Shown: piece by piece, positions 310 through 22,744 of the stretch
How positions within the stretch are numbered: the first letter of the stretch is position 1
Layout of the letters: every line of letters begins with the position of its first letter
Translations under genes and position numbers: made by a program
The notes under the pieces: model-generated
What the model saw: the letters and a program-made list of their open reading frames with translations, nothing else
The model's database searches: none
What the model was told of the DNA's origin: nothing
NCBI GenBank assembly: GCA_964526565.1
Contig: CAZGMC010000004.1
Location: forward strand, 15,370 to 39,369
Source: an uncultured Mycobacteriaceae bacterium
GTDB taxonomy: Bacteria > Pseudomonadota > Alphaproteobacteria > DSM-16000 > Inquilinaceae
Length of the DNA: 24,000 bases
Direction of reading: 5' to 3'

Positions 310-548
310 GGTATTGGCCTCCCCTGGCGCGCGATTTTGCCGCCAGTGTGACTCCGCCCGCAGGCAACCGGGGCCGCGACAAAGCGTAGCGCCGGGATCC
401 GCGCGATCGTCCCGGTTGCCCGGCATGTACGGCATGGCTGCCCTGCAGTGCGCTCAACAACCTGCAAGAAGACAGCCATTTCCTGCCCTGGTATCCTCTC
501 CTTCCTGTCGGCCGCCGCCGATGCTCCGCCCCGGAGGACCGCCTCCTC

Positions 549-1529
549 ATGACCGTCGAAGCCCGCGCCGCGGAGTCGTCGCTGTCGTGGCTGGCGCACG
601 TCCCGGTGCCGCTGTTCGCGGTCAGCATGGGACTGGGCGGGCTCGGCCTGGCGTGGCGGCGGGCGCATGCCGTGCTTGATTGGCCGGCCGCGGTCGGCGA
701 GGCGATCGTGCTGCTGGCGGCCGTGTGCTTCGCCGCCATTGCGGTGCTGTACGGGCTGAAGGCGCTGCGCTTTCCGGGCGCCGTGCGCGCCGACTTCGCC
801 CACCCGGTGCGGGTCAACTTCTTTCCGGCCGCCTCGATCAGCCTGCTGCTGCTGGCCGCCGGCGTGCTGCCTTATGGCCGCGGCCTGGCGGAGGCGGTGT
901 GGCTGACCGGAACGGTGCTGCAGCTCGTCCTGGCGCTGACCATCTTCGCCCGCTGGATCACCCGCAACGTCGAGATTCATCAGGCCAGCCCGGCCTGGTT
1001 CATCCCGGTCGTCGGCAACATCCTGGTGCCGATCGCCGGCGGGCCGCTGGGCCACATCGAGGTGTCGTGGTTCTTCTTCTATGTCGGGTTGGTGTTCTGG
1101 CTGGTACTGTTCACCATCGTGCTGTACCGGATCATCTTCCACGATCAGATGCCCGGCCGGTTCCTGCCGACCCTGTTCATCCTGATGGCGCCGCCGGCGA
1201 TCGGCTGCGTCGCCTACGGGGCGATCAACGGCGGCGGGCTGGACCCGCTGGTGCGGCTGCTGTTCTTCACGGCGCTGTTCATTGCCCTGCTGCTGGCGGC
1301 CATGGCGCGCCTGTTCGTGCGCCTGCCCTATGCCGTGAGCTGGTGGGCCTACACGTTCCCGTCGGCCTCGCTGGCCGGCGCCGCGCTGCACTACCACGCG
1401 CTGATCGGCGGGTGGGGCAGCACCGTGCTCGCCGTCGTCATCCTGCTGGCGGCGACGGCCATCATCGCGCTGGTCGCCGTTCGCACGGTGGCCGCGCTCG
1501 TTCAGGGACGTTTATTCGTTCCGGAGTAA
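549..1529 (+). CDS. TehA/SLAC1-type (tellurite-resistance/dicarboxylate transporter family) anion channel-like membrane protein
   Basis: The 326-aa product has about 10 hydrophobic segments. Its N-terminal LAHVPVPLFAVSMGLGGLGLAWRRA and the later PAWFIPVVGNILVP and WWAYTFPSASLA stretches are typical of the TehA/SLAC1 family. GGAGGA lies about 10 nt upstream of the ATG. Confidence 0.8.
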   Translation: MTVEARAAESSLSWLAHVPVPLFAVSMGLGGLGLAWRRAHAVLDWPAAVGEAIVLLAAVCFAAIAVLYGLKALRFPGAVRADFAHPVRVNFFPAASISLLLLAAGVLPYGRGLAEAVWLTGTVLQLVLALTIFARWITRNVEIHQASPAWFIPVVGNILVPIAGGPLGHIEVSWFFFYVGLVFWLVLFTIVLYRIIFHDQMPGRFLPTLFILMAPPAIGCVAYGAINGGGLDPLVRLLFFTALFIALLLAAMARLFVRLPYAVSWWAYTFPSASLAGAALHYHALIGGWGSTVLAVVILLAATAIIALVAVRTVAALVQGRLFVPE

Positions 1530-6400: not shown

Positions 6401-7663
6401 TCGGGAACCCTCATCGATGCCAATGACGTGTTCTATCGCATGACTGGTTATGCGCGCACCGAGGTGGAGGCCCGCGCCCTGACGTGGCGCATGATGACGC
6501 CGCCGGAGTGGGTCGAGGCCAGCGAACAGGAATTGGCCAGGCTGGCGCTCACGGGCCGCATAGGGCCTTACGAGAAGGAGTATTTCAGAAAGGACGGCTC
6601 GCGCCTCTGGATGCTGTTCGCCGGGCGCAGCCTCGGCGATGGCACCGTTGTCGAATACTGCATCGACGTGACCGACCGGAAGCGCATGGAGGAGGCGCTG
6701 CGGGAAAGCGAGGAACGGTACCGGTTCCTGTTCAATGCGATTGACGAGGGGTTCTGCACCATTGAAATGATCTTTGACGAAAGCGGCCGACCGGTCGATT
6801 ATCGCTTTCTGAGTGTGAATGAATCATTCGAGCGCCAGACCGGCCTCAAGGATGCTGTGAACAGGACCATGCGCTCGCTGACGCCAAAACACGAGGAGCA
6901 CTGGTTCGAGATTTTTGGCCGGATTGCCATGACAGGCGAGGCGGAGCGCTTCGAGAAGCCGGCCGCGGAACTTGGTCGTTACTATGAGGTCTATGCCTTC
7001 AGGGTCGGCAATACTGAAGAACGGAAGGTCGGCATCATCTTCAAGGACGCGAGCGAGCGCAAGCGGGCCGAGGAGCGGCAGGCGCTGCTGGTGCGCGAGC
7101 TCAACCACCGGGTCAAGAACATGCTCGCCTCGGTGCAGTCGATCGCCGCGCAGACGTTGCGCCGCAGCGAGTCGCTGGAGGGCTTCGGCAAGGCCTTCTT
7201 CGGCCGCATGGAGGCGCTGGCCCACTGCCACGACCTGCTGGTCCAGAGCAACTGGCGGGGTGCCAATGTCAGCCGCCTGCTGCGCGAGACCCTGAAGCCG
7301 CACTTCCGCGACGGCCACGACCGCATCACCGACGACTGCGCCGATTTCACCCTGCCGCCCTCTTCAGCCCTGGTCGTGACCCTGATCCTGCACGAGCTGG
7401 CGACGAACGCGGCCAAGTACGGGGCGCTGTCCACTGCCGACGGCCGCATCGAGGTGGATTGCCGCCGCGTCGACGATTCGGGCGCCCCCAGGATTCACTT
7501 TGTCTGGGTCGAGCACGATGGTCCCCAGATCGCCCCGCCGACCCACAAGGGCTTCGGCCGCACCCTGATCGAGCGCAGCGTGCAATACGAGCTGGATGGC
7601 GAGGTGGACCTCGACTTCCGCAGCGAGGGGCTATGCTGTAAGGTGACCTTTCCCGCGCCGTAG
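3431..7663 (+). CDS. multidomain sensor: CheB-like methylesterase + CheR-like SAM methyltransferase + coiled coil + PAS repeats + HWE/HisKA_2 histidine kinase
   Basis: The 1410-aa product shows each domain by motif. The N-terminus has CheB-type motifs (VVGIGASAGG, ILSGTGSNG). The CheR-type region has VTSFFRD, IWVPGCATGEEAYSLA and DLISCRNLLIYL. A heptad NEEL coiled coil follows, then several PAS-like blocks. The C-terminus has the kinase motifs ELNHRVKNMLA (phospho-His box) and GFGRTLIE. Confidence 0.9.
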   Translation: MNDAPERVSHVVGIGASAGGIAAVGTFLDNTPADSGLAFVVIMHLDPSRESHLRDLFARHTEMPVVDAEDGMPVLANRVHILPPNAKLRLIDSHFRLEALDQPRAERRPVDYFFTSLAGEYGDHAMCVILSGTGSNGSAGLKRVKIAGGLAVVQDPGTAQYSGMPHNAIATGVVDLVLPADRIPQALVHYLRHPHALRPAREDVEDREAEPDRDFHSILTLLRTRTGQEFRCYRRKTLLRRICRRMGLRQVDGLGRYAALLREDQREVTALARDLLINVTSFFRDPEAWQVLAERAIDPLIAEHRGDESLRIWVPGCATGEEAYSLAMLFSERADAAQKRTEFTIFASDATEDAVAIGRDGVYPASMIEELEPERIKRFFDREDDIFRVRKELRDAVIFAPQNVLQDPPFSRLDLISCRNLLIYLEPDVQRKVISLFHFALRQGGYLFLGNAETAAGQDDLFETLSKTWRIYRRMGPTRHELIDFPIIRHDGRDDHDGHEHGAPRQSGQPMPEPAALGRAADIARRALLDRYAPPSVLVDRRLRVVHFYGATEQFLRQPGGEPTTDLMALLRDGPQARVRSAAQDALAGSHPVTVEAWYRHDGGFCPVQVTAAPLRLPGDLDTALLISFAKPAGAEAPPAAAPPTEGHRATEEQLEQELRAVRDELRMTIEQMESSNEELKASNEEIMSMNEELQSANEELETSKEELQSLNEELNTVNAQLQNKVHELEGRTNDLNNLLNSTDIATLFLDQGMCIRWFTPGIKDLLDLMPSDVGRPISHFAQKFTDGSFEDDAAAVLRTLVPRSGEVASDDGHWYIRRFMPYRTEDNRIDGVVVTFTDITESKQSEQQIARAREFAESIVDTLHQPLVVFDDRLRVLSANETFYRDFQVSRDDTEGKFIYDLGNGQWNIPDLRHVLEDILPKQRIVRNFEVEHDFDSIGRRVMLLNARRLDHMPQILIAIDDITARKQAEERLHRVLETDAVGILFFDESGTLIDANDVFYRMTGYARTEVEARALTWRMMTPPEWVEASEQELARLALTGRIGPYEKEYFRKDGSRLWMLFAGRSLGDGTVVEYCIDVTDRKRMEEALRESEERYRFLFNAIDEGFCTIEMIFDESGRPVDYRFLSVNESFERQTGLKDAVNRTMRSLTPKHEEHWFEIFGRIAMTGEAERFEKPAAELGRYYEVYAFRVGNTEERKVGIIFKDASERKRAEERQALLVRELNHRVKNMLASVQSIAAQTLRRSESLEGFGKAFFGRMEALAHCHDLLVQSNWRGANVSRLLRETLKPHFRDGHDRITDDCADFTLPPSSALVVTLILHELATNAAKYGALSTADGRIEVDCRRVDDSGAPRIHFVWVEHDGPQIAPPTHKGFGRTLIERSVQYELDGEVDLDFRSEGLCCKVTFPAP

Positions 7664-7708: not shown

Positions 7709-8101
7709 ATGCCTATGCATTCAGTAGACGGACTGTCCGGCCTGCGAATCCTGCTTGTGGAAGACGAATACCTGTCGGCAATGGCGATCGAGGCGCTCCT
7801 GCTCGACCTGGGCTGCGAGATCGTCGGTCCGGCAGGCTCGGTCGATCAGGCCCTGGAGGCGCTGCGCGAGGCGACCATCGACGGCGTCCTGCTGGATCTC
7901 AATCTCCGCGGCGAACGCTCCGATCCGGTGGCCGCGGCGCTCATGGACCGCGGCATCCCGTTCATCGTGCTGAGCGGCTATGCCTCCGGCTTCCAACGCC
8001 TGGACGGCTTCGGCACCATGCCCCAATTGCGCAAGCCGGTCCCGGCCGCCCCCCTGATCGACGCCATGCAGCAGACCTTCCTGGCCACCGCCACCGACTG
8101 A
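7709..8101 (+). CDS. single-domain response regulator (REC only)
   Basis: The 130-aa product has LRILLVEDE acidic residues, the phospho-acceptor context VLLDLNL, and a conserved LRKP lysine. It lies 45 nt downstream of the kinase gene on the same strand. Confidence 0.9.
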   Translation: MPMHSVDGLSGLRILLVEDEYLSAMAIEALLLDLGCEIVGPAGSVDQALEALREATIDGVLLDLNLRGERSDPVAAALMDRGIPFIVLSGYASGFQRLDGFGTMPQLRKPVPAAPLIDAMQQTFLATATD

Positions 8102-10249: not shown

Positions 10250-10591
10250 ATGACGACCTTCGACAATCGCGAAAAGGCCATGGAGGGGCTGTATGCCCAC
10301 GATCTGGACCTGCTGTTCCGGGTCAATTGCCGGCGCGACAGGCTGGTGGCGATGTGGGCTGCTGAACAGATGGGGATGTCCGACGCCGAGGCGAAGGCCT
10401 ATGTCGACCGGATCGTCTCGATCGACTGCGAGAAGGCGCACACCGCCGTCCACGATGCGGTTCTCGAAGACCTCCGCAGCAAGGGAGTCGACGTCTCCGA
10501 CCATCGCCTGCGGACCAAGGTCAACCGGTTGACCCGGCGCGCCTGGGAGCAGGTGATGCAGGACGACAGGCTGCCGTCGGCCGCGTTCTGA
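10250..10591 (+). CDS. DUF1476-family protein (homologue of the alphaproteobacterial F1-ATPase inhibitor zeta subunit)
   Basis: The 113-aa product has the N-terminus MTTFDNREKAMEGLYAHDLDLLFRVNCRRDRLVAMWAA. This closely parallels the Paracoccus zeta-subunit N-terminus as I recall it (MTTFDDRERAHEAKFAHD...RRNRLLGEWAA). Confidence 0.75.
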   Translation: MTTFDNREKAMEGLYAHDLDLLFRVNCRRDRLVAMWAAEQMGMSDAEAKAYVDRIVSIDCEKAHTAVHDAVLEDLRSKGVDVSDHRLRTKVNRLTRRAWEQVMQDDRLPSAAF

Positions 10592-11858: not shown

Positions 11859-11931
<73 letters not shown>

Positions 11932-11946
11932 TGGACACACCCAGGA

Positions 11947-11972
11947 CCCGGCCGGAAACGGCCGGGTTTTTT
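11947..11972 (+). terminator. rho-independent terminator after tRNA-Ala
   Basis: CCCGGCCG-GAAA-CGGCCGGG is an 8-bp GC stem with a GAAA tetraloop, followed by TTTTTT. Confidence 0.85.
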
Positions 11973-12012
11973 CGTATCCGTCCGTCAAAACCGTATCGGG
12001 CGCATTGTGAAC

Positions 12013-12846
12013 ATGACCGTTTCCGACCCGCCCCTCATCGTCATGGTGGCCCCCAACGGGGCGCGCCGGACCAGGGCGGACCATCCGGCACTGCCGGTCA
12101 CGCCGGCGGAGCTGGCGGACAGCGCGGCGCGGTGCCTCGAGGCCGGGGCGGCAGCAATCCACGTCCACGTCCGCGACCGCGACGGGCGCCACACCCTCGA
12201 CCCGCAGGCATACGCCGCGGCGCTGGCCGCCATCCGCGGTGCCGTCGGCGACCGGCTGATCTGCCAGATCACCACCGAGGCGGTCGGCCGCCACACGCCG
12301 GCGGAGCAGGTGGCGACGGTGCGCGCCGTGCGCCCGGAGGCTGTGTCGCTGGCGCTGCGCGAGCTCGCCCCCGGCCCCGAGGACGAAGCCGAAGCGGCAC
12401 GGTTCCTGGCCTGGCTGGCCGCCGAGCGGATTCACCCCCAGTTCATCCTGTACGACAGCGCCGACGTTCGGCGCTTTGCCGACTGGCGGCGGCGCGGGCT
12501 CGTGCCGCAGGAGCGGCCGTTCCTGCTGTTCGTCCTGGGCCGCTACGCCGGCGAACGCGGCGCCCGGCCGGCCGACCTGATCCCGTTCCTGACCGCCGCG
12601 GCGCCGGGCGGCGGCCTGGAAACCCCTTGGGCCGTCTGCGCTTTCGGCCCGCGCGAGGGCGCCTGCGCGTTGACGGCGGCGGCCTTGGGGGGGCATAGTC
12701 GCATCGGTTTTGAGAACAACATGTCTCTGGCCAGCGGCGCGATTGCATCCGACAATGCGGCGCTGGTGGCCGAGACGGTGGCCACGGCGGCCCTGATCGG
12801 ACGTACGGCCGCGACCGCCGACCAGGCGCGCGACGCACTCTATTGA
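12013..12846 (+). CDS. beta-keto acid cleavage enzyme family protein (BKACE/DUF849, 3-keto-5-aminohexanoate cleavage enzyme-like)
   Basis: PLIVMVAPNGARRTRADHPALPVTPAELADSAARCLEAGAAAIHVHVRDRDGRHTLDP matches the BKACE N-terminal TIM-barrel signature (AP.G...P.lPvTp.E......AGAa..H.HvRd). The start is set at ATG 12013 because the track start at 11923 would overlap the tRNA and its terminator. Confidence 0.8.
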   Translation: MTVSDPPLIVMVAPNGARRTRADHPALPVTPAELADSAARCLEAGAAAIHVHVRDRDGRHTLDPQAYAAALAAIRGAVGDRLICQITTEAVGRHTPAEQVATVRAVRPEAVSLALRELAPGPEDEAEAARFLAWLAAERIHPQFILYDSADVRRFADWRRRGLVPQERPFLLFVLGRYAGERGARPADLIPFLTAAAPGGGLETPWAVCAFGPREGACALTAAALGGHSRIGFENNMSLASGAIASDNAALVAETVATAALIGRTAATADQARDALY

Positions 12847-12981
12847 GGGACCGGGGGCGGGCCCGTGCCGGGTCGCCCCCTGGCCAACGCCGCGACACGC
12901 CGGGTACAAGGCGGCCGCGGCGGCGCCGGGATTGCCGGATGGCAACCCCGTCAAGAAGAAGGCAGACATGGAGGAACGAGC

Positions 12982-13965
12982 ATGCGAACCATCGTAGCAG
13001 GCACCCTGGCCGTCGCCGTCGCCGGCGCCGTCGGCCTGACCGGCCCGGCGGTGACTGCCCAGGACGAGACCTTCGTCTCGATCGGCACCGGCGGCGTCAC
13101 CGGCGTCTATTATCCGACCGGCGGCGCCATCCAGCGCCTGGTCAACCGCGGCCGCGCCGAGCACGGCATCCGCGTCGCCGTGGAGAGCACCGGCGGCTCG
13201 GTGTTCAACCTCAACGCCATCGGCTCGGGCGAGCTGGACATGGGCGTCGCCCAGTCCGACCAGCAGTACAACGCCTATCATGGCGAGGGCCCGTTCGAGG
13301 AGGTCGGTGCCAACGAGGACCTGCGCGCCGTCTTCTCGATCCACGGCGAGCCGTTCACCGTCGTCGCCCGCGCCGACGCCGGCATCGCGACCTTCGAGGA
13401 CCTGCCGGGCCACCGCGTCAACATCGGCAACCCCGGCTCCGGCCAGCGTGCCACCATGGAGCGGCTGATGGAGGTCTATGGCTGGAGCATGGACGACTTC
13501 AGCCAGGTCTCCGAGCTGCAGTCGTCAGAGCAGGCCCAGGCCCTGTGCGACAACAACGTCGACGCCATCGTCTTCACGGTCGGCCACCCGTCCGGCTCGA
13601 TCCAGGAGGCGACGACGACCTGCGACACCGTCATCGTGCCGGTGCAGAGCGAGACCGTCGACCAGCTTGTGGATGAGAACCCGTACTACGCCTACACCAC
13701 CATCCCCGGCGGCATGTACGAGGGCAACCCGGACGATGTCGTCACCTTCGGCCCGAAGGCCACCTTCGTCACCTCCACCGCGGTCGGCGCGGACGTGGTG
13801 TACCAGGTCGTCGCGGCGGTGTTCGACAACATCGACGACTTCCGCCGCCTGCACCCGGCCTTCGCCACCCTGGAGCCGGAGCAGATGGTTCGCGACGGCC
13901 TGTCCGCCCCGCTGCATGAGGGTGCCGAGCGGTACTACCGCGAGCACGGCCTGATCCAGGAATAG
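12982..13965 (+). CDS. TAXI-family TRAP transporter solute-binding protein
   Basis: A signal peptide (MRTIVAGTLAVAVAGAVGLTGPAVTAQ) is followed by the TAXI hallmark SIGTGGVTGVYYPTGGAIQRLVN. GGAGGA lies 7 nt upstream of ATG 12982. Confidence 0.9.
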   Translation: MRTIVAGTLAVAVAGAVGLTGPAVTAQDETFVSIGTGGVTGVYYPTGGAIQRLVNRGRAEHGIRVAVESTGGSVFNLNAIGSGELDMGVAQSDQQYNAYHGEGPFEEVGANEDLRAVFSIHGEPFTVVARADAGIATFEDLPGHRVNIGNPGSGQRATMERLMEVYGWSMDDFSQVSELQSSEQAQALCDNNVDAIVFTVGHPSGSIQEATTTCDTVIVPVQSETVDQLVDENPYYAYTTIPGGMYEGNPDDVVTFGPKATFVTSTAVGADVVYQVVAAVFDNIDDFRRLHPAFATLEPEQMVRDGLSAPLHEGAERYYREHGLIQE

Positions 13966-14068: not shown

Positions 14069-16900
14069 ATGAGCGCAGAGGCACAGGAGCGGCAGTCCTC
14101 CGCCAACAACCTGGAGGATCTGGTGGCATCGACCGATACCGGCGCCCGCCACCCGGACAGCCCCGTCGCCGCCAGGATCATGATCCATGCGGCGTTCCTC
14201 TGGTCGGTGTTCCAGCTGTGGATCGCCTCGCCGCTGCGCTTCCACGATTACTTCGGCGTCACCTTCAGCCCGAACGATGCCCAGACGCGGGCGATCCACC
14301 TCGGCTTCGCGCTGTTCCTGGCCTTCCTGGCCTTTCCCGCACTGAAGCGCTCGCCGCGCGACCGCGTGCCGGCGCTCGACTGGGTCCTGGCCATCGTCGG
14401 CGCCTTCTGCGCCAGCTATCGCTTCTGGTTCTATGATGACCTGGCGCGGCGTCCCGGCCTGCCCACCGACCTGGACATCTGGGTGTCGGTGGTCGGCCTG
14501 ATCCTGCTGCTGGAGGGCACGCGGCGCTCGCTGGGGCCGCCGCTGATGGGCGTGGCGATGGTGTTCCTCGCCTACGTCTTCTTCGGCGACGCCAACTGGC
14601 TGCCGGACATGATTCGCTATCCGGGCGCCAGCCTGAACCGCGCCATGAGCCATATGTGGCTGGAGGACCAGGGCGTGTTCGGCATCGCGCTGGGTGTCTC
14701 CACCAAGTTCGTGTTCCTGTTCGTCCTGTTCGGTGCGCTGCTGGAGCGGGCCGGGGCCGGCAACTATTTCATCAAGGTGGCATTCTCCCTGCTCGGCCAT
14801 TTGCGCGGCGGCCCGGCCAAGGCGGCGGTGGTCGCCTCGGGCATGACCGGGCTGATCTCCGGCTCGTCGATCGCCAACGTCGTCACCACCGGCACCTTCA
14901 CCATCCCGCTGATGCGGCGGGTCGGCTTCACCTCGGAGAAGGCCGGCGCGGTCGAGGTGGCCAGCTCCGTCAACGGCCAGATCATGCCGCCGGTGATGGG
15001 CGCGGCCGCCTTCCTGATGGTCGAGTACGTCGGCATCCCGTACATCGACGTGATCCGCCATGCCTTCCTGCCGGCGGTGATCTCGTACATCGCGCTGCTC
15101 TACATCGTCCACCTGGAGGCGCTGAAGCAGAACATGACCGGCCTGCCGCGGCCCGGCCGGCCGCTCGGGGGCAGGTGGGCGCTGATCGCCTTCGGCTTCA
15201 CGGTCGCCTCGGTGCTGATCATCGCCGGCGCGGCCTACTGGGTGCTGGCCGCAGCGGCGGCCCTGGCACTGGACAGCGCGGTGTTGCTCGGCATCCTCGC
15301 CGTGTTCGCGCTGGAGGTCGTGTTCTTCAAGGCGCTCAAGGCGCGCCTGCCCGCCGACCGCGCCCGCCACTTCATCTCGGCCGGCGCCCTGGTGCTGGGC
15401 AACGTCGTCCTCGGCACGCTGGCACTGTACTACGGCATCGCCGTGCTGCGCGACGTGTTCGGCGGCGGCGCCAGCTGGGCGATTGCGGCGCTGGCCGCCG
15501 TGGTCTACGTGGCGCTGATCTGGTACGCGGCGCGGGTGCCCGAGCTGGAGATGGACGACCCGAACTCGCCGATCATCCACCTGCCCGAGCCGGGACCCAC
15601 GGTGAAATCCGGCCTGCACTTCCTGCTGCCGATCGTCGTGCTGGTCTGGAGCCTGATGATCGAGCGGCTGTCGCCGGCGCTGTCGGCGTTCTGGGCGACC
15701 GCGCTGATGATCTTCATAGTGCTGACGCAGCGCCCCCTGTTCGGCATCTTCCGCCGGTCGCGCCAGCCGCTGTGGGACGCCGCGAAGCAGGGCTTCTCCG
15801 AGCTGTTCGAGGGCATGGTCACCGGCGCGCGCAACATGATCGGCATCGGCATCGCCACGGCCACCGCCGGCATCATCGTCGGCACCGTGACGCTGACCGG
15901 CATCGGCCTGGTCATGGCAAATTTCGTCGAGTTCCTGTCCCAGGGCAGCCTGATCCTGATGCTGCTCCTGGTCGCCGTGCTCAGCCTGATCCTGGGCATG
16001 GGCCTGCCGACGACCGCCAACTACATCGTCGTGTCCGCCCTGATGGCCCCGGTCGTGGTCGAGCTGGGCGCCCAGAGCGGGCTGGTCGTGCCGCTGATCG
16101 CCGTGCACCTGTTCGTGTTCTACTTCGGCATCATGGCCGACGTGACGCCGCCGGTGGGCCTGGCCTCGTTCGCCGCCGCCGCGGTATCGGGCGGCGACCC
16201 GATCCGCACCGGCATCATTGCCTTCTACTATTCGTTGCGGACTGCGGCGCTGCCCTTTATCTTCATTTTCAACACACAGATCCTGTTGATCGGCATCGTT
16301 GGACCGGTCAACCTGATTCTGACCGTGGGCAGCGCCACCGTCGCCATGCTGGTCTTCGCCGCTGCCACCCAGGGCTATTTTTTCACGCGCAGCCGTCTTT
16401 GGGAATCGGCCGTGCTGCTGCTGGTCGCGTTCACCCTGTTCCGGCCGGGCTTCTGGATGGACATGGTGTTTCCCCCAATCGAGCAGGCCGACCCGGCGCA
16501 ACTCGTCGAGCTGGCCGAGCAGGCGCCGCGCGGCGGCCGCCTGCGTGTCATCCTTGAGCGGGAAGACTTTCGCGGCAACGTGACGAGGGTCACGCAGATG
16601 CTCGACCTCGGGCCCGCCGGCCCCGGCGAGGAGCGGCTGCGCCATGCCGGGCTGGATTTCTTGACGGTTGGCGAGGACGAGGTCACCGCCGAGCCGGTCA
16701 TGTTCGGGCCGCTCGACGACCCGGACTTCGACCCGGTGCTGACCGTCGTGTCCGTCCAGCAGCGTGCCGAGGTGCCACCGAAGGAGCTTGCCTTCATTCC
16801 GGCCCTTCTGGTGCTGGGCCTGATCGTCCATATACAGCGGGTGCGCAGCCGGCGCCAACCGGCAGCACCGGCGGCCGCGGCGGCGGAGGCAAGGGTGTAG
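14069..16900 (+). CDS. TAXI-type TRAP transporter fused permease with a C-terminal extension (DUF3394-like)
   Basis: The 943-aa product is very hydrophobic with many TM segments. SVFQLWIASPL near the N-terminus and SGSSIANVVTTGTFTIPLM are typical of fused DctQM-like TAXI permeases. The last ~150 aa are a mostly soluble segment ending in one more TM (FIPALLVLGLIVHI). Confidence 0.88.
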   Translation: MSAEAQERQSSANNLEDLVASTDTGARHPDSPVAARIMIHAAFLWSVFQLWIASPLRFHDYFGVTFSPNDAQTRAIHLGFALFLAFLAFPALKRSPRDRVPALDWVLAIVGAFCASYRFWFYDDLARRPGLPTDLDIWVSVVGLILLLEGTRRSLGPPLMGVAMVFLAYVFFGDANWLPDMIRYPGASLNRAMSHMWLEDQGVFGIALGVSTKFVFLFVLFGALLERAGAGNYFIKVAFSLLGHLRGGPAKAAVVASGMTGLISGSSIANVVTTGTFTIPLMRRVGFTSEKAGAVEVASSVNGQIMPPVMGAAAFLMVEYVGIPYIDVIRHAFLPAVISYIALLYIVHLEALKQNMTGLPRPGRPLGGRWALIAFGFTVASVLIIAGAAYWVLAAAAALALDSAVLLGILAVFALEVVFFKALKARLPADRARHFISAGALVLGNVVLGTLALYYGIAVLRDVFGGGASWAIAALAAVVYVALIWYAARVPELEMDDPNSPIIHLPEPGPTVKSGLHFLLPIVVLVWSLMIERLSPALSAFWATALMIFIVLTQRPLFGIFRRSRQPLWDAAKQGFSELFEGMVTGARNMIGIGIATATAGIIVGTVTLTGIGLVMANFVEFLSQGSLILMLLLVAVLSLILGMGLPTTANYIVVSALMAPVVVELGAQSGLVVPLIAVHLFVFYFGIMADVTPPVGLASFAAAAVSGGDPIRTGIIAFYYSLRTAALPFIFIFNTQILLIGIVGPVNLILTVGSATVAMLVFAAATQGYFFTRSRLWESAVLLLVAFTLFRPGFWMDMVFPPIEQADPAQLVELAEQAPRGGRLRVILEREDFRGNVTRVTQMLDLGPAGPGEERLRHAGLDFLTVGEDEVTAEPVMFGPLDDPDFDPVLTVVSVQQRAEVPPKELAFIPALLVLGLIVHIQRVRSRRQPAAPAAAAAEARV

Positions 16901-17347: not shown

Positions 17348-18082
17348 ATGATCGATTGGAACCGTCTGAGCCGGCCCGAACTGACGGCCATGCATGAGGC
17401 CGCCACCGAGGTGGTGTTGTGCCAGCGCGTGCTGGCCAAGACGGGCGACAACGTGGTCTCCGAAATCCTGCGCGATGCCGGAACCTTCTTTGAATGGCAT
17501 CACTATCCCAAAGGCGACGTCTACGACGCCGAGTACCACGCACAGTATTACTACCACGCTCATCCCGAGGGTCAGCGCGTCCCCGGCGAACACGGCCACT
17601 TCCACGTGTTCCTGCGCCCCTTCGGCATGCCGGAGGGAATGAAGCCGGCACCACTGCCCGACTACAAGCCGGCCCGGAACCGCAATGACGAATTGAGCCA
17701 TCTGGTCGGCATCTCCATGAACGGGGCCGGCCAGGCGATCCGTCTGTTCACCACCAACCGCTGGGTCACGGGCGAGACTTGGTACTCGGCCGAAGATGTG
17801 ACCGCCATGCTTGATCGCTTCGTGATCGACCACGCGCGGCCGTCGTGGCCGACCAACCGCTGGATCACCGCCATGATGCGGCTGTTCCGGCCGCAGATCG
17901 CCGCCCTGCTGCACCAGCGCGACCGGCGCATCGCCGAGTGTGCAGCGCAGAGCCGGAGCCGGAACGTCTATGAGGACCGCGACCTCGAGGTGACGTCGGA
18001 GCTGGGCATTTCGGTGCCGGACCAGATCGTCGCCCTGGAAGATGCCATGCAGGGCCTGCGCCGCGACGCCGCAGCGGTCTGA
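17348..18082 (+). CDS. His-cluster protein of unknown function (I recall relatives catalogued only as a DUF, possibly DUF6969; unverified)
   Basis: The 244-aa ORF starts 12 nt after usp and has high GC3 throughout. It contains a dense His/Tyr cluster, WHHYPKGDVYDAEYHAQYYYHAHPEGQRVPGEHGHFHVF. It has no motif of a characterised enzyme family that I can name. Confidence 0.7.
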   Translation: MIDWNRLSRPELTAMHEAATEVVLCQRVLAKTGDNVVSEILRDAGTFFEWHHYPKGDVYDAEYHAQYYYHAHPEGQRVPGEHGHFHVFLRPFGMPEGMKPAPLPDYKPARNRNDELSHLVGISMNGAGQAIRLFTTNRWVTGETWYSAEDVTAMLDRFVIDHARPSWPTNRWITAMMRLFRPQIAALLHQRDRRIAECAAQSRSRNVYEDRDLEVTSELGISVPDQIVALEDAMQGLRRDAAAV

Positions 18083-18135: not shown

Positions 18136-18182
18136 GTCGGCTCCCCCCTCCCCCCGGGGGGGGGGCCAGGCAGGCAGCCGAC
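18136..18182. repeat. GC homopolymer palindrome: GTCGGCT-C6-T-C6-G10-...-AGCCGAC
   Basis: Read directly from the sequence: C6 at 18143-18148, T at 18149, C6 at 18150-18155 and G10 at 18156-18165. The flanking 7-bp inverted repeat is GTCGGCT (18136-18142) and AGCCGAC (18176-18182). Confidence 0.9.
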
Positions 18183-18371: not shown

Positions 18372-18394
18372 TGTTCATGTCAGTTTGATGAACA
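18372..18394. promoter_or_regulatory. inverted repeat TGTTCAT-N9-ATGAACA (candidate operator)
   Basis: The 7-bp arms are perfect. The repeat lies 88 nt upstream of the 18482 start. The right arm is part of ATGAACATGG, which recurs exactly at the start codon (18482-18491). Confidence 0.35.
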
Positions 18395-18481
18395 TGGTGC
18401 CGGCAGAGCAGGGCAGCGCTCGCGGGCCCGCCTTTGCACCACGATGGATGACGGCTCGAGACGACGAAGGGATCCTTCCGT

Positions 18482-20371
18482 ATGAACATGGACAGTAACA
18501 GCAGAACCTTGCCGTTCGTGCTGCCCGACGACTATCAGGCCGTGGTCGCCTCGGCCCCGCGCGTCTTCGTTCCGGAGACGCGGCGGGAGCTGGTAGACTT
18601 GGCGCTCGGCGGCGCCGGCAGCGACCGCTTCGAGGTCGGCTATGACGTGCCCGGCAAGGGCTATGTCGCCGAGGCCGAGGTGGTGCGCGCCCGCAATGGC
18701 GTCGTGGTCAACTACCTTGAGTCGTACATGCGCCGCCGGGATCCCGACAGCATGGTCGTGGCCGATGCCGCCCCCACGGACCAGCGGCGCTTCGACGACC
18801 GGTTCGGCGGGCCATTCGCGCCGGTCCGCAAGGACATCCTGAACTGGCTGGCCGCGCAGGAACTGGTGCTGGTCCCGTTCAAGGCGGGGCACGCGGACTA
18901 CGGCTACGACGCGCTGCTGCTGGCCCCGGCCAATGCCGGCTTCTTCGCCGCCGCGTTGGCCGACCTGCAGGGCAGCATCCCCGGCAGCGAGGTGCCAACG
19001 GACTTCGCCCCGCGCGCCTTCGTCGTCCTGGCGCCGCCGTTCCGGCACACCCTGTGCGAGGGCCGACAGGTCGTGGTCCATAACCGGACCGACCAGGCCC
19101 ACGAGGTGTTCTCGTTCAACCTCTATCCGGGCCCCAGCGCCAAGAAGGGCATCTACGGCGTCCTGCTCAACATCGGTGAGGCCGAGGGCTGGGTCACCAC
19201 CCACTCCTCGACGGTGCAGCTGGTCACGCCCTACGACAACACGTTCACGATCATGCACGAGGGTGCCTCGGGCGGCGGCAAGAGCGAGATGCTGGAATAC
19301 CCGCACCGTGAGATCGACGGGCGCCTGCTGCTCGGCCACAACCTGGTCACCGGCGAGAAGCGCTACCTCACCCTGCCGCGCGCCTGCGAGCTGCATCCGG
19401 TCACCGACGACATGGCCCAGTGCCAGCCGAGCCTGCAGAACCAGAGCCGGAAGCTGGTCGCCACCGACGCCGAGAACGGCTGGTTCGTGCGCGTCGACCA
19501 CATCAAGCAGTACGGCACCGATCCGCACCTGGAGCGGACCTGCGTCAATCCGACCGAGCCTCTGCTGTTCCTGAACCTGGAGGCAGTTCCCGGCGCCACC
19601 TGCCTGATCTGGGAGCACACATATGACGCTCCCGGCAAGCCGTGCCCGAACCCGCGCGTGGTGCTGCCACGCCAGCAGGTGCCGAACATCCAGAACGATC
19701 CGGTCGAGGTCGACATCCGCACGCTGGGGGTGCGCACGCCGCCGTGCACGAAGGAGCAGCCGAGCTACGGCATCCTCGGCATGATGCACGTCCTGCCGCC
19801 GCCGCTCGGCTGGCTGTGGCGGCTGGCCACCCCGCGCGGCCATGCCAACCCCAGCATCGTCGATACCGGCGGCCTGAGCAGCGAGGGCGTCGGCTCGTTC
19901 TGGCCGTTCGCCACGGGGCAAAAGGTCGAGCTGGCCAACATCCTGCTGCGCCAGATCCGCGAGACGCCGGAAACCGACTTCGCCATCTTTGCCAACAGCC
20001 ACATCGGCTGCTGGAAGGTCGACTTCATGCCGCAGTGGATCGGCCGCGAATACCTGGCGCGGCGCGGCGGCGCGCGGTTCCGTCCCGGCCAGCTCGAGCG
20101 GGCGCGGCTGGCGATCCTGGGTTATGTGCAGTTGCAGATGCAGGTCGAGGGGGCGCTGGTCCCGGACTGGTTCCTGCGCACCCATCTGCAGCCGGAGGTC
20201 GGCGAGGAGGCCTATGACATCGGCGGCGAACAGCTGATGGGCTACTTCCGGCGCGAACTGGAGCATTTCCGCAAGGCGCCGTCCCTCGACCCGGTGGGCC
20301 GGCGCATCCTGGAGGTCTTCTTCGACGGCGGCCACCAGGGCAACTACAAGGACGCCTGGGCGGCGGCCTGA
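18482..20371 (+). CDS. large protein of unknown function with a PEPCK/HprK-type P-loop (I recall relatives annotated as DUF4914; unverified)
   Basis: The 629-aa ORF has high GC3. It carries the P-loop HEGASGGGKSEMLE (nt 19262-19288), followed about 40 aa later by HPVTDDMAQC and then ENGWFVRVDH. This order resembles the PEP carboxykinase kinase-1a/kinase-2 motifs and the HPr kinase GxSGxGKSE...ADD motifs. An in-frame stop at 18449-18451 fixes the first possible start at 18482. Confidence 0.8.
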   Translation: MNMDSNSRTLPFVLPDDYQAVVASAPRVFVPETRRELVDLALGGAGSDRFEVGYDVPGKGYVAEAEVVRARNGVVVNYLESYMRRRDPDSMVVADAAPTDQRRFDDRFGGPFAPVRKDILNWLAAQELVLVPFKAGHADYGYDALLLAPANAGFFAAALADLQGSIPGSEVPTDFAPRAFVVLAPPFRHTLCEGRQVVVHNRTDQAHEVFSFNLYPGPSAKKGIYGVLLNIGEAEGWVTTHSSTVQLVTPYDNTFTIMHEGASGGGKSEMLEYPHREIDGRLLLGHNLVTGEKRYLTLPRACELHPVTDDMAQCQPSLQNQSRKLVATDAENGWFVRVDHIKQYGTDPHLERTCVNPTEPLLFLNLEAVPGATCLIWEHTYDAPGKPCPNPRVVLPRQQVPNIQNDPVEVDIRTLGVRTPPCTKEQPSYGILGMMHVLPPPLGWLWRLATPRGHANPSIVDTGGLSSEGVGSFWPFATGQKVELANILLRQIRETPETDFAIFANSHIGCWKVDFMPQWIGREYLARRGGARFRPGQLERARLAILGYVQLQMQVEGALVPDWFLRTHLQPEVGEEAYDIGGEQLMGYFRRELEHFRKAPSLDPVGRRILEVFFDGGHQGNYKDAWAAA

Positions 20372-20389
20372 ACGGACGTTGGACGGCCT

Positions 20390-20422
20390 GGGGCGGAGCG
20401 GCAGGCAGAGCCGCTCCGCCCC
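20390..20422. terminator. bidirectional terminator-like hairpin between convergent genes
   Basis: GGGGCGGAGCGGC-aggcaga-GCCGCTCCGCCCC is a perfect 13-bp stem. It sits between the stop at 20371 (+) and the stop at 20449 (-). It is followed by ATTCCTTTCC, which is only a weak T-tract. Confidence 0.6.
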
Positions 20423-20448
20423 ATTCCTTTCCGGGCGTGGGCGGAGCC

Positions 20449-20898
20449 CTAGTCCGCTGCCTGCTCCGGCGCCGTCACGCGGCGCAGATAGGCCATCAGG
20501 GCACGCAGATCCTCGTCGTCGCGCAGAGCGGCGAAGGCCATGCGATTGCCGGGAATGTAGCGGCGGGGCTCGCGCAGATAGGCCTCCAGCGTTTCCTCGG
20601 TCCACACGATGTCGGCGTTGCGCATGGCCTCGGAATAGCGGAAGTCCGGCAGACTGCCGGCCGGCCGGCCGAACAGACCGACCAGGTGCGGCCCCACCTT
20701 GTTTTCGCGATGAGCGGCGGCGTGGCAGGCGGCGCAGCGGGTATAGACCTGCCGCCCCTGAGCGAACAGGGCATACTCTGCCGTGCCCGTGTCGCCATCG
20801 CCGCCGTCACCGCAGCCGGCGGCCCCGAGCAGCAGCGCCGCCGCGACCGTCGGCTTCAGCCAGCGCCTCAGCCAGCGCCTCAGCCAGCGCCTCAGCAT
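20449..20898 (-). CDS. lipoprotein-type class I cytochrome c (c2-like)
   Basis: The product has the heme motif CAACH, NKVGPHLVGLFGRPAG, and the distal Met context IPGNRMAF. The N-terminus MLRRWLRRWLRRWLKPTVAAALLLGAAGC has a lipobox-like LGAAG-C. The start at ATG 20898 overlaps the rhodanese stop by 7 nt. Confidence 0.85.
   Translation of the reverse strand: MLRRWLRRWLRRWLKPTVAAALLLGAAGCGDGGDGDTGTAEYALFAQGRQVYTRCAACHAAAHRENKVGPHLVGLFGRPAGSLPDFRYSEAMRNADIVWTEETLEAYLREPRRYIPGNRMAFAALRDDEDLRALMAYLRRVTAPEQAAD
20856..20896 (-). repeat. in-frame 12-bp tandem repeat (3.4 copies of TCAGCCAGCGCC on the + strand) encoding (RRWL)x3
   Basis: Read directly from the sequence, with copies at 20856-20867, 20868-20879 and 20880-20891 plus a partial copy at 20892-20896. 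On the minus strand it reads ATG CTG (AGG CGC TGG CTG)x3 AAG. Confidence 0.95.
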
Positions 20899-21350
20899 GA
20901 CGGGCAGGGCTCGGTCGGCAGCCGCCGCGACAGCCAGCCCGGTCCGTCGCGGCTGCCGTGCATGCCTTCGGCTACGTCGTAGACGTGCGTGAAGCCGCGC
21001 GCGGCCAGGAACGACTGCGCCGCCCGCGACCGTGCCCCCGACGCGCAGATCAGCGCCACTGGCCGGTCGCGGTCGCCGCCCACCGCCGCCTCCACCGCGC
21101 GCAGGAAGGCCTCCGGCCCGCCGCTGTTGTGGATGGTGACGGGCAGGGCACCGGCCGGCAGCCCGGTGCGCCGCCATTCCATCGGCGAACGCACGTCAAC
21201 GAGGACCAGTTCGCCCGTTTCGGCACGGCGCAGCGCCTCGTCCGCGGCCAGGCGTCCGTCATCGGCCGCGGCATGCCGCCCGACGGCGGCAATGGCCATG
21301 ATCATCATTGCGGTCAGCAGTCCCTTCACCGGCAGGCCTCCCTGTCGCAT
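20892..21350 (-). CDS. exported single-domain rhodanese-like sulfurtransferase
   Basis: The product has a signal-like N-terminus (KGLLTAMMIMAIAAVGRHAAA), LVDVRSPMEW, and the active-site loop ICASGARS. The start is uncertain: ATG 21350 has no SD, whereas GTG 21329 lies 7 nt after GGAGG. Confidence 0.8.
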   Translation of the reverse strand: MRQGGLPVKGLLTAMMIMAIAAVGRHAAADDGRLAADEALRRAETGELVLVDVRSPMEWRRTGLPAGALPVTIHNSGGPEAFLRAVEAAVGGDRDRPVALICASGARSRAAQSFLAARGFTHVYDVAEGMHGSRDGPGWLSRRLPTEPCPSC

Positions 21351-21448
21351 GGGAACAGCACGCGGCGCCGCTCGCCTCGCAGGCGGGGGAGCAAGGCTGC
21401 CCAGTCGGCGGCGCGGCTGACATGCTGGTATCCTTTATGGCTGAACGG

Positions 21449-21463
21449 GTTGCATTTTGCAAC
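21449..21463. promoter_or_regulatory. perfect palindrome GTTGCA-TTT-TGCAAC (candidate operator; fits T-N11-A)
   Basis: Read directly from the sequence, in the divergent rhodanese/DUF2336 intergenic region. GCAAC recurs at 21493-21497 and 21521-21525, and TTGCA recurs at 21561-21565. Confidence 0.4.
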
Positions 21464-21562
21464 GCGGGGCCGGTGTCGGTGCAGGCCAGCCTGGCAACGC
21501 TGCAAGAGCCTGGGCTTAAGGCAACATTAAAGAGTCCTTGGCAGTTTGTTTCGCATACGCTT

Positions 21563-21592
21563 GCACCGGCCCCGGACACCATGGGCCGGTGC
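21563..21592 (+). other. perfect 10-bp stem-loop in the DUF2336 leader
   Basis: GCACCGGCCC-(10-nt loop)-GGGCCGGTGC. Its 3' end lies 30 nt upstream of ATG 21623 and is followed by a CCTCCT element. Confidence 0.5.
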
Positions 21593-21622
21593 CGTTCAGT
21601 CCTCCTGCGGTTGGGCTCCCGG

Positions 21623-22744
21623 ATGACAAGTTCTCTTACGCGCGATGACGTCACCCGTCTGCTGGCGGAACCCTCGGCGCAGGTGCGCGCCACGATCGCC
21701 GAAAAGGTGGCCGGCCAGCTCGACGCGACCAGCCTGACCCGCGACGAGCTGCAACTGGCCCAGGACATCGTTCAGATCATGGCTCGCGACGCCACCACCC
21801 TGGTGCGCGAGGCGTTGGCGGCGAACCTGAAATCGTCCAGCAACCTGCCGCGCGACGTGGCGCTGCACCTGGCCAGGGACATCGACTCGGTCGCCGTGCC
21901 GATCCTGGAATGCTCCGAGGTGCTGGCCGACGAGGACCTGATCCGCCTGGTTCGCACGCAGCCGGAGAGCAAACAGGCAGCCATCGCCCGCCGCACCGCA
22001 CTGTCGGAGGCAGTGGCCGATGCCCTGGTGCAGACCGACAACCGCACCGTCGTGCGTGCCGTGGTCGCCAATCACGGCGCGCGCATCGGCGAGGAGACCC
22101 TGCACCGCGTGGTAGACCGGTACGGGGCCGACGAAGGCATCCAGGAGCCGCTGGTCCGGCGTGGCAGCTTGCCAATCACCGTGACCGAGCGGCTCGTCGC
22201 CATGGTCTCCGACCGGCTCAAGGACTATCTGGTCACCCACCACGAGATGAGCGCGGACAGTGCCAGCGAGCTGGTCCTGCGCGCGCGCGAGCGGGCCACC
22301 GTCAACATCGTCAGACCGTTCACCGACGAGGACGCGCTGGAGAAGCTGGTGGTCCAGCTCGGTCGCAACGGCCGTCTGTCGCCCTCGCTGGTGCTGCGGG
22401 CGCTGTGCATGGGCGACATGCCGTTCTTCGAGTACGCCATGGCGCAGCTCGCCGGGGTGCCGGTGGTCAACGCCCGCATCCTGATCCACGACCCCGGCAT
22501 GCTCGGCATGAAGTCTCTGTACGACCGGGCACGGCTGCCGGCAAAGCTGTTTCCGGCGTTCCGCACGGCTGCGCAGGTGGCCAGGGACACGGACTTCCGC
22601 GGCGCCGACTACGACCGCGAGAGCTACAGCCGCACCATGCTGGAACGGATCCTGACCCAGTGCGAGGACCTGCGCTGGGACGACGCCGAATACCTGCTGC
22701 GCAAGCTGATCGACATCGCCCCGCCGGCCATGAACGCGGCGTAG
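21623..22744 (+). CDS. DUF2336 domain-containing protein
   Basis: The 373-aa product is helical-repeat-like. It begins MTSSLTRDDVTRLLAEPSAQVRATIAEKVA and contains LPRDVALHLARD, which matches my recollection of the alphaproteobacterial DUF2336 family. The start is set at ATG 21623; the track ORF start at 21308 would run through the divergent promoter region. Confidence 0.75.
   Translation: MTSSLTRDDVTRLLAEPSAQVRATIAEKVAGQLDATSLTRDELQLAQDIVQIMARDATTLVREALAANLKSSSNLPRDVALHLARDIDSVAVPILECSEVLADEDLIRLVRTQPESKQAAIARRTALSEAVADALVQTDNRTVVRAVVANHGARIGEETLHRVVDRYGADEGIQEPLVRRGSLPITVTERLVAMVSDRLKDYLVTHHEMSADSASELVLRARERATVNIVRPFTDEDALEKLVVQLGRNGRLSPSLVLRALCMGDMPFFEYAMAQLAGVPVVNARILIHDPGMLGMKSLYDRARLPAKLFPAFRTAAQVARDTDFRGADYDRESYSRTMLERILTQCEDLRWDDAEYLLRKLIDIAPPAMNAA

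Follow-up and report, generated by a model that had tools for sequence, protein, structure and literature searches.

Phosphoenolpyruvate carboxykinase (PEPCK) stands at the junction of glycolysis, gluconeogenesis and the tricarboxylic acid (TCA) cycle, and three classes of it are recognised, which use ATP, GTP or inorganic pyrophosphate (PPi). In PckA, the ATP-dependent enzyme, D268 and D269 ligate Mg2+ and Mn2+, and K213 and H232 are Mn2+ ligands. The kinase-2 signature of this class is L-I-G-D-D-E-H-x-W, with the topology strand, DD, strand, and the GTP class follows the same two-metal logic of KK, His and DD. The N-terminal domain of HPr kinase/phosphorylase (HprK/P), a protein of about 310 aa, is a different one, and the Y...KK...H metal and substrate site is not known from it. 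PEPCK interconverts oxaloacetate and phosphoenolpyruvate (PEP), drawing on ATP, GTP or PPi. A site dedicated to CO2 and a need for both Mg2+ and Mn2+ are features of the enzyme (PMC8100219). A genome survey verifies ATP-PEPCK by the residues R65, K212, K213, H232, K254, D269, K288 and R333 of the structure 1OEN, and PPi-PEPCK by K335, K336, H356, D659 and D660 (PMC13147460). Here we analyse a window of 24,000 nucleotides (the whole stretch of DNA under study, from contig CAZGMC010000004.1 of assembly GCA_964526565.1), in which one gene encodes a 629-aa protein of the Pfam family DUF4914. The predicted structure of this protein is that of a complete PEPCK, and the catalytic residues of PEPCK are nearly all retained in it.

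The gene and its immediate signals, read from the sequence, are as follows.

18466..18472, plus strand: Shine-Dalgarno-like GAAGGGA, 9 nt 5' of the ATG.
18482..20371, plus strand: coding sequence, ATG start and TGA stop, of the 629-aa DUF4914 family protein, with the full PEPCK-like two-domain fold (by Pfam, structure model, Foldseek and hhalign).
20389..20423, plus strand: intrinsic-terminator-like hairpin with a 14-bp stem of 12 G-C pairs, starting 18 nt past the stop.

The protein matches DUF4914 (PF16260) with 968 bits against a cut-off of 25.7 bits (E = 1.5e-291), aa 14-623 covering profile positions 1-609 of 612. It had first been described as a protein of unknown function; this stands for its function, DUF4914 being functionally blank, and not for any orphan status, since it is a textbook member of its family. 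Because the window is GC-rich (~68%), long spurious open reading frames (ORFs) occur on both strands, and a 741-aa ORF overlapping the gene on the minus strand (18380-20605) was set aside as such an artefact, the plus-strand frame being the one that matches DUF4914 end to end. A 400-bp gap and the Shine-Dalgarno-like site upstream, together with the strong terminator hairpin downstream, lead us to read the gene as its own transcription unit, and in this window it looks monocistronic.

We built an AlphaFold2 model on a 40-sequence DUF4914 alignment (mean predicted local distance difference test score, pLDDT, 85.9; predicted template-modelling score, pTM, 0.87) and compared it with the PDB by Foldseek. 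There were 117 matches at E <= 0.001, and the best 50 of these 117 are all PEP carboxykinases. ATP-PEPCKs come first (1XKV, 1OS1 and 1J3B), at E = 4-8e-20 (best 3.9e-20), with template-modelling (TM) scores of 0.73-0.77 normalised to the target and about 600-650 aligned columns. GTP-PEPCKs (2QZY, 4R43) follow at E ~1e-18 and TM 0.59-0.64, and the PPi-PEPCKs (6K31, 8E1U), also at E ~1e-18, cover the largest share of the query, with TM 0.67-0.72 normalised to the query. The two-domain fold of PEPCK thus spans the whole chain of the model, and the ATP class is matched over its full length.

By plain sequence comparison this relationship does not appear. A phmmer search of the whole protein against the PDB sequences gave chance-level matches only, as did a search with the isolated P-loop segment (aa 230-345), which found no HprK; the matches in these searches were crystallins and MIR domains. 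An hhalign comparison with the single PckA sequence was not significant either. With the DUF4914 profile, the best PDB sequence match is the Thermus ATP-PEPCK (E = 0.04), and when 40 DUF4914 sequences were aligned by hhalign with eight ATP-PEPCKs (from E. coli, Riemerella, Sulfurimonas, S. aureus, Rhizobium, Sphingobium, Bacillus mycoides and Halarchaeum) the probability rose to 89.2%, with E = 2.2e-6 over 422 columns, aa 78-598 of the query lying on residues 58-526 of E. coli PckA. Since the plain searches stayed at chance level, the homology between DUF4914 and PEPCK is visible only with profiles and structure. The profile alignment places the following motifs on PckA; the roles of individual PckA residues are those which we take from the E. 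coli structures.

18725..18745, plus strand: YMRRRDP (aa 82-88), with R84 and R86 invariant, aligned to the substrate-binding Arg segment G-R65-S-P-K-D-K of E. coli PckA.
19034..19051, plus strand: PPFRHT (aa 185-190), a family-specific segment with R188 in 131/131 homologues and no PEPCK counterpart.
19118..19150, plus strand: NLYPGPSAKKG (aa 213-223), with Y215 on PckA Y207 and K221/K222 on K212/K213.
19190..19210, plus strand: WVTTHSS (aa 237-243), with H241 on PckA H232.
19256..19297, plus strand: HEGASGGGKSEMLE (aa 259-272), the P-loop or kinase-1a motif, with S263, K267 and S268 on PckA S250, K254 and T255.
19466..19501, plus strand: DAENGWFVRVDH (aa 329-340), with E331-x-G333...R337 on PckA E282-G-G...K288, the phosphate-binding Lys being replaced by Arg.
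19640..19660, plus strand: PCPNPRV (aa 387-393), with N390 and R392 on PckA N331 and R333 (substrate and phosphoryl binding).
19832..19855, plus strand: PRGHANPS (aa 451-458), aligned to the A-G-T-E-R-G segment of PckA, which we take to be the mobile active-site lid.
19991..20065, plus strand: ANSHIGCW...REYLARR (aa 504-528), on the nucleotide-base region N440-T-G-W and K448-R449 of PckA, with the register uncertain by about 1 residue.

Seven of the eight residues by which ATP-PEPCK is verified are identical in the query: R65, K212, K213, H232, K254, D269 and R333 correspond to R84/R86, K221, K222, H241, K267, D310 and R392, and the eighth, K288, is a conservative change to R337. R65 aligns to the R-R-R stretch 84-86 in a register uncertain by 1 residue, and the pairing of D269 with D310 was set by invariance, not by the hhalign placement. 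Y207 (on Y215), the P-loop residues S250, K254 and T255 and the pair N331/R333 are matched as listed above, and the spacing from KK to His is 19 residues in both proteins. Among the Foldseek matches are PDB entries of the mutants R65Q, Y207F, K213S, S250A, K254S and D269N and of a K212 mutant, so that R65, Y207, K212, K213, S250, K254 and D269 are positions whose catalytic role has been studied.

These matches are not fortuitous, because the residues are fixed in 130 or 131 of 131 homologues. In this sample of full-length sequences, which are 27-78% identical to the query, 18 columns are invariant (131/131), namely E64, R84, R86, R188, Y215, G217, K221, K222, S263, G264, K267, E269, D309, D310, E331, N390, R392 and R522, and the query carries the consensus residue in all of them. 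H241, R337, D329 and R452 are each found in 130/131, G453 in 129/131 and N456 in 128/131. Hence every mapped verification residue, and Y215 and S263 besides, is kept at 130-131/131 in homologues down to 27% identity. The P-loop itself, GASGGGKSE (aa 261-269), fits G-x-S-G-x-G-K-S-E, an ending which we take, from the HprK consensus, to be the HprK/P form.

The assignment of the kinase-2 Asp pair needs more care, since here two lines of evidence disagree. The segments concerned are the following.

19319..19381, plus strand: GRLLLGHNLVTGEKRYLTLPR (aa 280-300), a family-specific inserted beta-hairpin, with model strands 282-287 and 293-296 and variable positions 286 and 287.
19388..19420, plus strand: ELHPVTDDMAQ (aa 303-313), kinase-2, with D309/D310 assigned to PckA D268/D269 by conservation and by the strand-DD-strand topology.

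The hhalign comparison put L-I-G-D268-D269 of PckA on L-L-G285-H286-N287 and not on D309-D310. We examined both sites in divergent members at 27-37% identity and then in the 131 full-length homologues. The residues at position 286 (R, E, K, T, Q and others) are close to random and N287 is found in 123/131, not fixed, while D309 and D310 are invariant; in the model, moreover, strands 303-308 and 311-313 flank the DD directly, and the extra strands 282-287 and 293-296 come before it. We therefore rejected the placement on G285-H286-N287, and conservation together with the predicted secondary structure makes D309/D310 the probable kinase-2 pair. From K267 to D310 there are 43 residues, against 15 in PckA, an insertion of about 28 residues that contains the hairpin. 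E64, R188, R522 and E269 are likewise invariant in DUF4914 and are without a counterpart in PEPCK. The hairpin and these four residues suggest that substrate, co-substrate or regulation differs from that of the canonical PEPCKs.

The initial annotation had proposed a nucleotide-dependent enzyme of the PEPCK/HPr-kinase superfamily from three motifs, and had pointed to a PEPCK or HprK structure search and to the conservation of the P-loop and the Asp pair as the means to judge it. The ORF and all three motifs lie where it had placed them (HEGASGGGKSEMLE at aa 259-272, D309/D310 in HPVTDDMAQ, and ENGWFVRVDH at aa 331-340). The fold is not an unrelated one (Foldseek E ~4e-20 over the full length; hhalign E = 2.2e-6, 89%), S263, G264, K267, E269, D309 and D310 are each 131/131, the choice of D309/D310 as kinase-2 is upheld despite hhalign, and the E-x-G...basic motif, which it had read in the order of PEPCK, is borne out by E331 (131/131) and R337 (130/131). 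Its view that the C-terminal part of about 300 aa has no recognisable motif was mistaken, for this part aligns to the C-terminal domain of PEPCK, with N390/R392, the lid-like PRGHANPS and the C-terminal helix, which hhalign also aligned with PckA.

Taken together, fold and conserved residues argue strongly that the protein belongs to the PEPCK superfamily as an active enzyme that depends on a nucleotide, and we hold this with considerable confidence. A non-catalytic nucleotide-binding sensor or regulator on a retained PEPCK scaffold would fit with the gene standing alone, without pathway partners, in most genomes. We consider it highly improbable, because the residues for metal, phosphate and substrate are all fixed in 130-131/131 homologues, whereas pseudo-enzymes usually lose catalytic residues; such fixation indicates that the PEPCK catalytic set is under absolute selection.

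On the analogy of ATP-PEPCK, the active enzyme may work as follows. Mg-NTP (nucleoside triphosphate) would bind the P-loop through K267 and S268, aided by R337 and D309, and a second metal, Mn2+ in PEPCK, would be held by K222, H241 and D310. A small 2-oxo or enol carboxylate would sit on this second metal, gripped by R84/R86 and R392, with the lid PRGHANPS closing over it, and Y215 would line the pocket that in PEPCK is occupied by CO2. Transfer of the gamma-phosphate could then run either way, from nucleotide to the substrate's enolate oxygen or back, a step probably coupled to the loss or gain of CO2. The simplest such reaction would be oxaloacetate + NTP <-> PEP + NDP (nucleoside diphosphate) + CO2, or its equivalent with a closely related compound. 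By this analogy we lean, by a modest degree, towards two-metal, nucleotide-dependent chemistry of the PEPCK type on oxaloacetate/PEP or a close 2-oxo-acid analogue.

The family in which these residues are kept is large, tight and isolated, as the following searches indicate. A search of 5.8 billion proteins found DUF4914 relatives in at least 8000 clusters at 90% identity, with PF16260 on every match listed, and at least 596 confirmed relatives are present in species-representative genomes. The phyla listed include Bacillota, Spirochaetota, Planctomycetota, Verrucomicrobiota, Chloroflexota, Acidobacteriota, Omnitrophota, Myxococcota and more; Bacteroidota are presumably carriers too, going by the Pfam description. 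Among the matches listed, the query is still 59-66% identical to members from Planctomycetes, Clostridia, Sumerlaeota and others, and the closest genome relative is a metagenome-assembled genome (MAG) of Geminicoccaceae (Alphaproteobacteria), at 71%. An exhaustive HMMER search of 1.84 billion representatives at 50% identity gave 792 matches at E <= 0.001, of which most are fragments; the full-length members fall almost entirely in one 50%-identity cluster, with few divergent full-length ones besides, and no PEPCK was reached among the best 150 of the 792 matches. No informative domain fusion (Rosetta stone) was found for DUF4914, the only cases being chimeric partial-domain artefacts with MFS and DprA, and no DUF4914 was found in the plasmid and chromid collection.

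We then asked which genes recur beside DUF4914, by clustering all ORFs of 80 genome loci and naming the clusters with Pfam. The recurrent neighbours are as follows.

MpsC (DUF2294), 19 loci in four phyla, the commonest neighbour: directly upstream on the same strand in 18/80, downstream on the opposite strand in the 19th.
PocR-AraC regulator, 10 loci, Verrucomicrobia: divergent and upstream in 9/10 (L033, L045, L050, L061, L063, L072, L073, L080 and L081).
DUF3360 membrane protein, 7 loci.
PurE, 7 loci.
Adenylate kinase, 6 loci.
PurC, 2 loci, and also in this window at a distance of 9 kb.
PurK, 2 loci.

The position of MpsC raises the possibility that DUF4914 is a protein kinase/phosphorylase like HprK/P, with the small MpsC protein as its substrate or partner. 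In its favour are the G-x-S-G-x-G-K-S-E form of the P-loop with its invariant E269 and the placing of MpsC directly upstream on the same strand in 18/80 loci of four phyla. MpsC has no known function, is dispensable for MpsAB and is not syntenic with MpsAB outside staphylococci (Fan et al. 2019, PMC6689103). We nevertheless regard this explanation as improbable. The query has the whole N-terminal domain of PEPCK and its KK/His Mn2+ site, neither of which HprK/P is known to have. All the best 50 of 117 structural matches are PEPCKs, Pfam reports no Hpr_kinase match, and a sequence search with the P-loop segment by itself brings up no HprK/P. This window, like about three quarters of the loci, furthermore has no MpsC, and no gene for HPr (ptsH) or for the phosphotransferase system (PTS) is found in the window or among the recurrent neighbours. 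A link to CO2 or bicarbonate by way of MpsC was also considered and dropped, on account of its dispensability for MpsAB and its lack of synteny outside staphylococci.

Linkage to PurK, PurE or PurC occurs in 9 loci, to adenylate kinase in 6 and to DUF3360 in 7, in Bacillota, Spirochaetota and Verrucomicrobiota. The gene order is shuffled, as in MpsC-DUF4914-PurK-PurE-DUF3360, PurE-DUF3360-MpsC-x-DUF4914-PurK-Adk, MpsC-PurE-PurC-DUF4914, MpsC-PurE-DUF4914, MpsC-DUF4914-DUF3360 and MpsC-DUF4914-Adk, and since several of these units are bracketed by genes on the opposite strand they are discrete clusters and not a spill-over of a pur operon. Such clusters, which most loci and this window do not have, point loosely to nucleotide and/or inorganic-carbon metabolism. 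That DUF4914 might substitute for PurK was rejected, as PurK itself adjoins it in L011 and L017. In Verrucomicrobia, the divergent PocR-AraC gene suggests that the DUF4914 gene is under small-molecule control.

Several further observations were made in these loci. In L082 the PocR-AraC regulator lies about 2 kb downstream of DUF4914. PurE is followed directly by DUF3360 in L017 (637-1179 and 1163-2578, a 17-nt overlap of the ORFs) and in L011 (4385-4879 and 4933-6312), and DUF3360, for which no remote Pfam affinity was found, may be a transporter tied to the step of 5-aminoimidazole ribonucleotide (AIR) carboxylation. A 389-aa protein of Verrucomicrobia with two tandem adenylate-kinase domains (L045 12818-13987; L050 7324-8493, plus strand) is encoded about 900 bp downstream of DUF4914, after an ORF of about 300 aa without a Pfam match. 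In L011, from a Clostridia MAG, the TwoAYGGAY RNA motif of Rfam has a borderline match (440-594, plus strand; 44.2 against a gathering score of 43 bits) just 5' of the MpsC-DUF4914-PurK-PurE-DUF3360 cluster, and none was found in the 15 other sources scanned.

The same fold and two-metal phosphoryl transfer could also serve a kinase or phosphotransferase that acts on a different, probably larger, polyanionic substrate, such as a purine-pathway or nucleotide-related metabolite or phosphate/pyrophosphate, with the substrate residues of PEPCK re-used. What favours it are the invariant E64, R188, R522 and E269 absent from PEPCK, the family-specific hairpin, the unusually high conservation (about 60% identity between phyla), the recurrence of PurK/PurE/PurC (9 loci), adenylate kinase (6) and DUF3360 (7) in changing gene orders, and the PocR-AraC sensor of the 10 Verrucomicrobia loci, divergent in all but one, which suggests inducible use. 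On the other hand, all mappable residues that contact oxaloacetate, PEP or CO2 in PEPCK are kept unchanged, the clusters contain PurK as well as PurE, with no purine step obviously missing, and such neighbours are found in 7-24% of loci only, none of them adjoining the gene in this window. We regard this alternative as the chief rival of PEPCK-type chemistry, though the less probable of the two.

Chemistry of the PEPCK type remains the reading that we prefer, and a number of points weigh against it. The residue equivalences come from the profile alignment and not from a superposition of structures, and hhalign, as described, places the kinase-2 segment elsewhere. Pfam at E <= 10 reports DUF4914 alone, with no PEPCK model (PEPCK_ATP), no NCBIfam model matches the protein, and a full-text literature search for DUF4914 and PF16260 found no papers. 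The additional invariant residues R188, R522, E64 and E269, taken with the cross-phylum identity of about 60%, suggest a substrate larger than or different from oxaloacetate. No riboswitch or leader was found upstream of DUF4914 in 16 sources, the T-boxes in the scanned loci belonging to divergent trp operons and a cyclic di-AMP (c-di-AMP) riboswitch lying 5 kb off, and no conserved neighbour in the 80 genome loci names the substrate.

The most specific form of this reading is that DUF4914 is a nucleotide-dependent carboxykinase for PEP or a related 2-oxo acid, of a fourth class not recognised before. Such a class would be spread over saccharolytic Bacillota, Spirochaetota, Planctomycetota, Verrucomicrobiota, Chloroflexota, Bacteroidota and some Alphaproteobacteria, and would in some lineages be co-regulated with the CO2/bicarbonate-demanding PurK/PurE/PurC, with adenylate kinase and with a dedicated transporter. 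We put this forward, in all its parts, as a tentative and rather doubtful proposal; the linkage to PurK/PurE/PurC, adenylate kinase and a transporter in other phyla gives weak support to a link with inorganic carbon or nucleotides.

In this window, the genes upstream of DUF4914 are others.

11859-11931, plus strand: tRNA gene (Rfam, 62.6 bits), overlapping the listed TTG start of the BKACE ORF.
11923-12846: BKACE, from the listed TTG start; the Pfam match begins at aa 37.
12865-13965: TAXI binding protein.
14069-16900: fused TAXI membrane protein, followed by a 448-bp gap.
17348-18082, plus strand: DUF6969 (E = 2.8e-89), on the same strand as DUF4914 and 400 bp upstream.

The overlap with the tRNA gene and the late start of the Pfam match indicate that the true BKACE start lies further in. 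A palindrome of a C-run and a G-run (~18141-18170) follows the DUF6969 stop within the 400-bp gap, and 3' of DUF4914 the terminator hairpin is followed by a convergent cytochrome c gene. BKACE, TAXI and DUF6969 stand beside DUF4914 in 0/85 other loci, including those of relatives at 72-79% identity, which have entirely different neighbours. We have therefore discarded these genes as clues to function, and the argument from the TAXI importer and BKACE, by which the substrate had been held to be a small organic acid rather than a protein, falls with them. The conclusion itself survives on another basis, a small acid being still the more likely substrate in view of the conserved PEPCK residues for substrate and Mn2+.

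Some features of the remaining window are recorded for completeness. Within the minus-strand ORF 20449-21177, TCAGCCAGCGCC is repeated perfectly in tandem (12-nt unit, 3.4 copies, 20856-20896) and encodes (RRWL)x3 directly before the lipobox-like LLLGAAGC of the cytochrome c protein. Such a repeat is unusual for a signal-peptide n-region, and translation probably begins at the Met immediately ahead of it. On the plus strand, 3431-7663 encodes a single polypeptide of 1410 aa that joins a CheB methylesterase, a CheR methyltransferase, several PAS domains and an HWE histidine kinase, with a stand-alone receiver domain after it (7709-8101), and 10250-10591 encodes an ATPase inhibitor zeta subunit (PF07345). 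Zeta subunits of this family and HWE kinases are typical of Alphaproteobacteria, and with the Geminicoccaceae MAG (71%) as the nearest genomic relative listed for DUF4914, the zeta subunit assigns the source organism to this class. Two proteins of uncharacterised families are a bacterial TANGO2-family protein (PF05742; 9231-10055, minus strand) and a DUF2336 protein (21308-22744, plus strand).

In DUF4914 we thus have a family of at least 8000 clusters that keeps nearly every catalytic residue of PEPCK and yet is recognised by no PEPCK sequence model. Should it be a carboxykinase, a reaction at the node of PEP, pyruvate, oxaloacetate and inorganic carbon is unaccounted for, and the reconstructed metabolic networks and flux models of many anaerobes that degrade polysaccharides lack this central reaction, the models of gut Bacteroidota, Verrucomicrobia, Planctomycetes and uncultured phyla being affected likewise. 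If the substrate is another one, the family represents new chemistry on a classic scaffold. The hypothesis can be tested directly, because the key residues for mutation are specified and the family has carriers in culture, among them Caldanaerobacter subterraneus DSM 13054, Anaerolinea thermolimosa IMO-1, Anaerocolumna xylanovorans DSM 12503, Sporanaerobium hydrogeniformans and Thermopirellula anaerolimosa.

Finally, we compare the family with the systems described at the outset. DUF4914 is catalogued in Pfam, is functionally blank and is outside the ATP-, GTP- and PPi-PEPCK families as currently defined, since curated models miss it, the kinase-2 signature is not matched, and it has an insertion and invariant residues of its own; its resemblance to the PEPCK fold may already be visible in structure-based classifications. 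With HprK/P it has in common the G-x-S-G-x-G-K-S-E P-loop and, after it, a hydrophobic strand ending in DD, but there is no Pfam Hpr_kinase_N or Hpr_kinase_C match at E <= 10, and at 629 aa with a PEPCK-type N-terminal domain it is a different protein. GTP-PEPCK (EC 4.1.1.32; 2QZY, 4R43), compared by structure, shares the fold, with a structural match weaker than that of the ATP class. PPi-PEPCK (EC 4.1.1.38; 6K31, 8E1U), compared by Foldseek, shares the fold and the KK...H...DD core formed by its five verification residues (PMC13147460), and shows that the superfamily tolerates large insertions between core motifs; it has about 1100 aa and uses PPi, and the shorter chain of the query and its intact canonical nucleotide P-loop argue against membership. 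From ATP-PEPCK (PckA, EC 4.1.1.49; 1AQ2, 1OEN, 1J3B) the query differs in its low identity (about 13-16%), in being missed by the Pfam PEPCK and NCBIfam models (including pckA), in the 28-residue hairpin between P-loop and Asp pair, followed by a loop longer by 8 residues, and in a P-loop that ends in GKSE instead of GKTT. It has Arg for K288, reads PVTDDMAQC where E. coli has LIGDDEHGW, so that DD alone is common to the two, and is about 90 residues longer, with the extra invariant E64, R188 and R522. With this class it shares the whole two-domain fold, a significant profile-profile alignment, and one order of motifs at largely equal distances: substrate Arg, Y...KK, His, P-loop, DD, E-x-G...K/R, N-x-R, lid-like loop and C-terminal helix.

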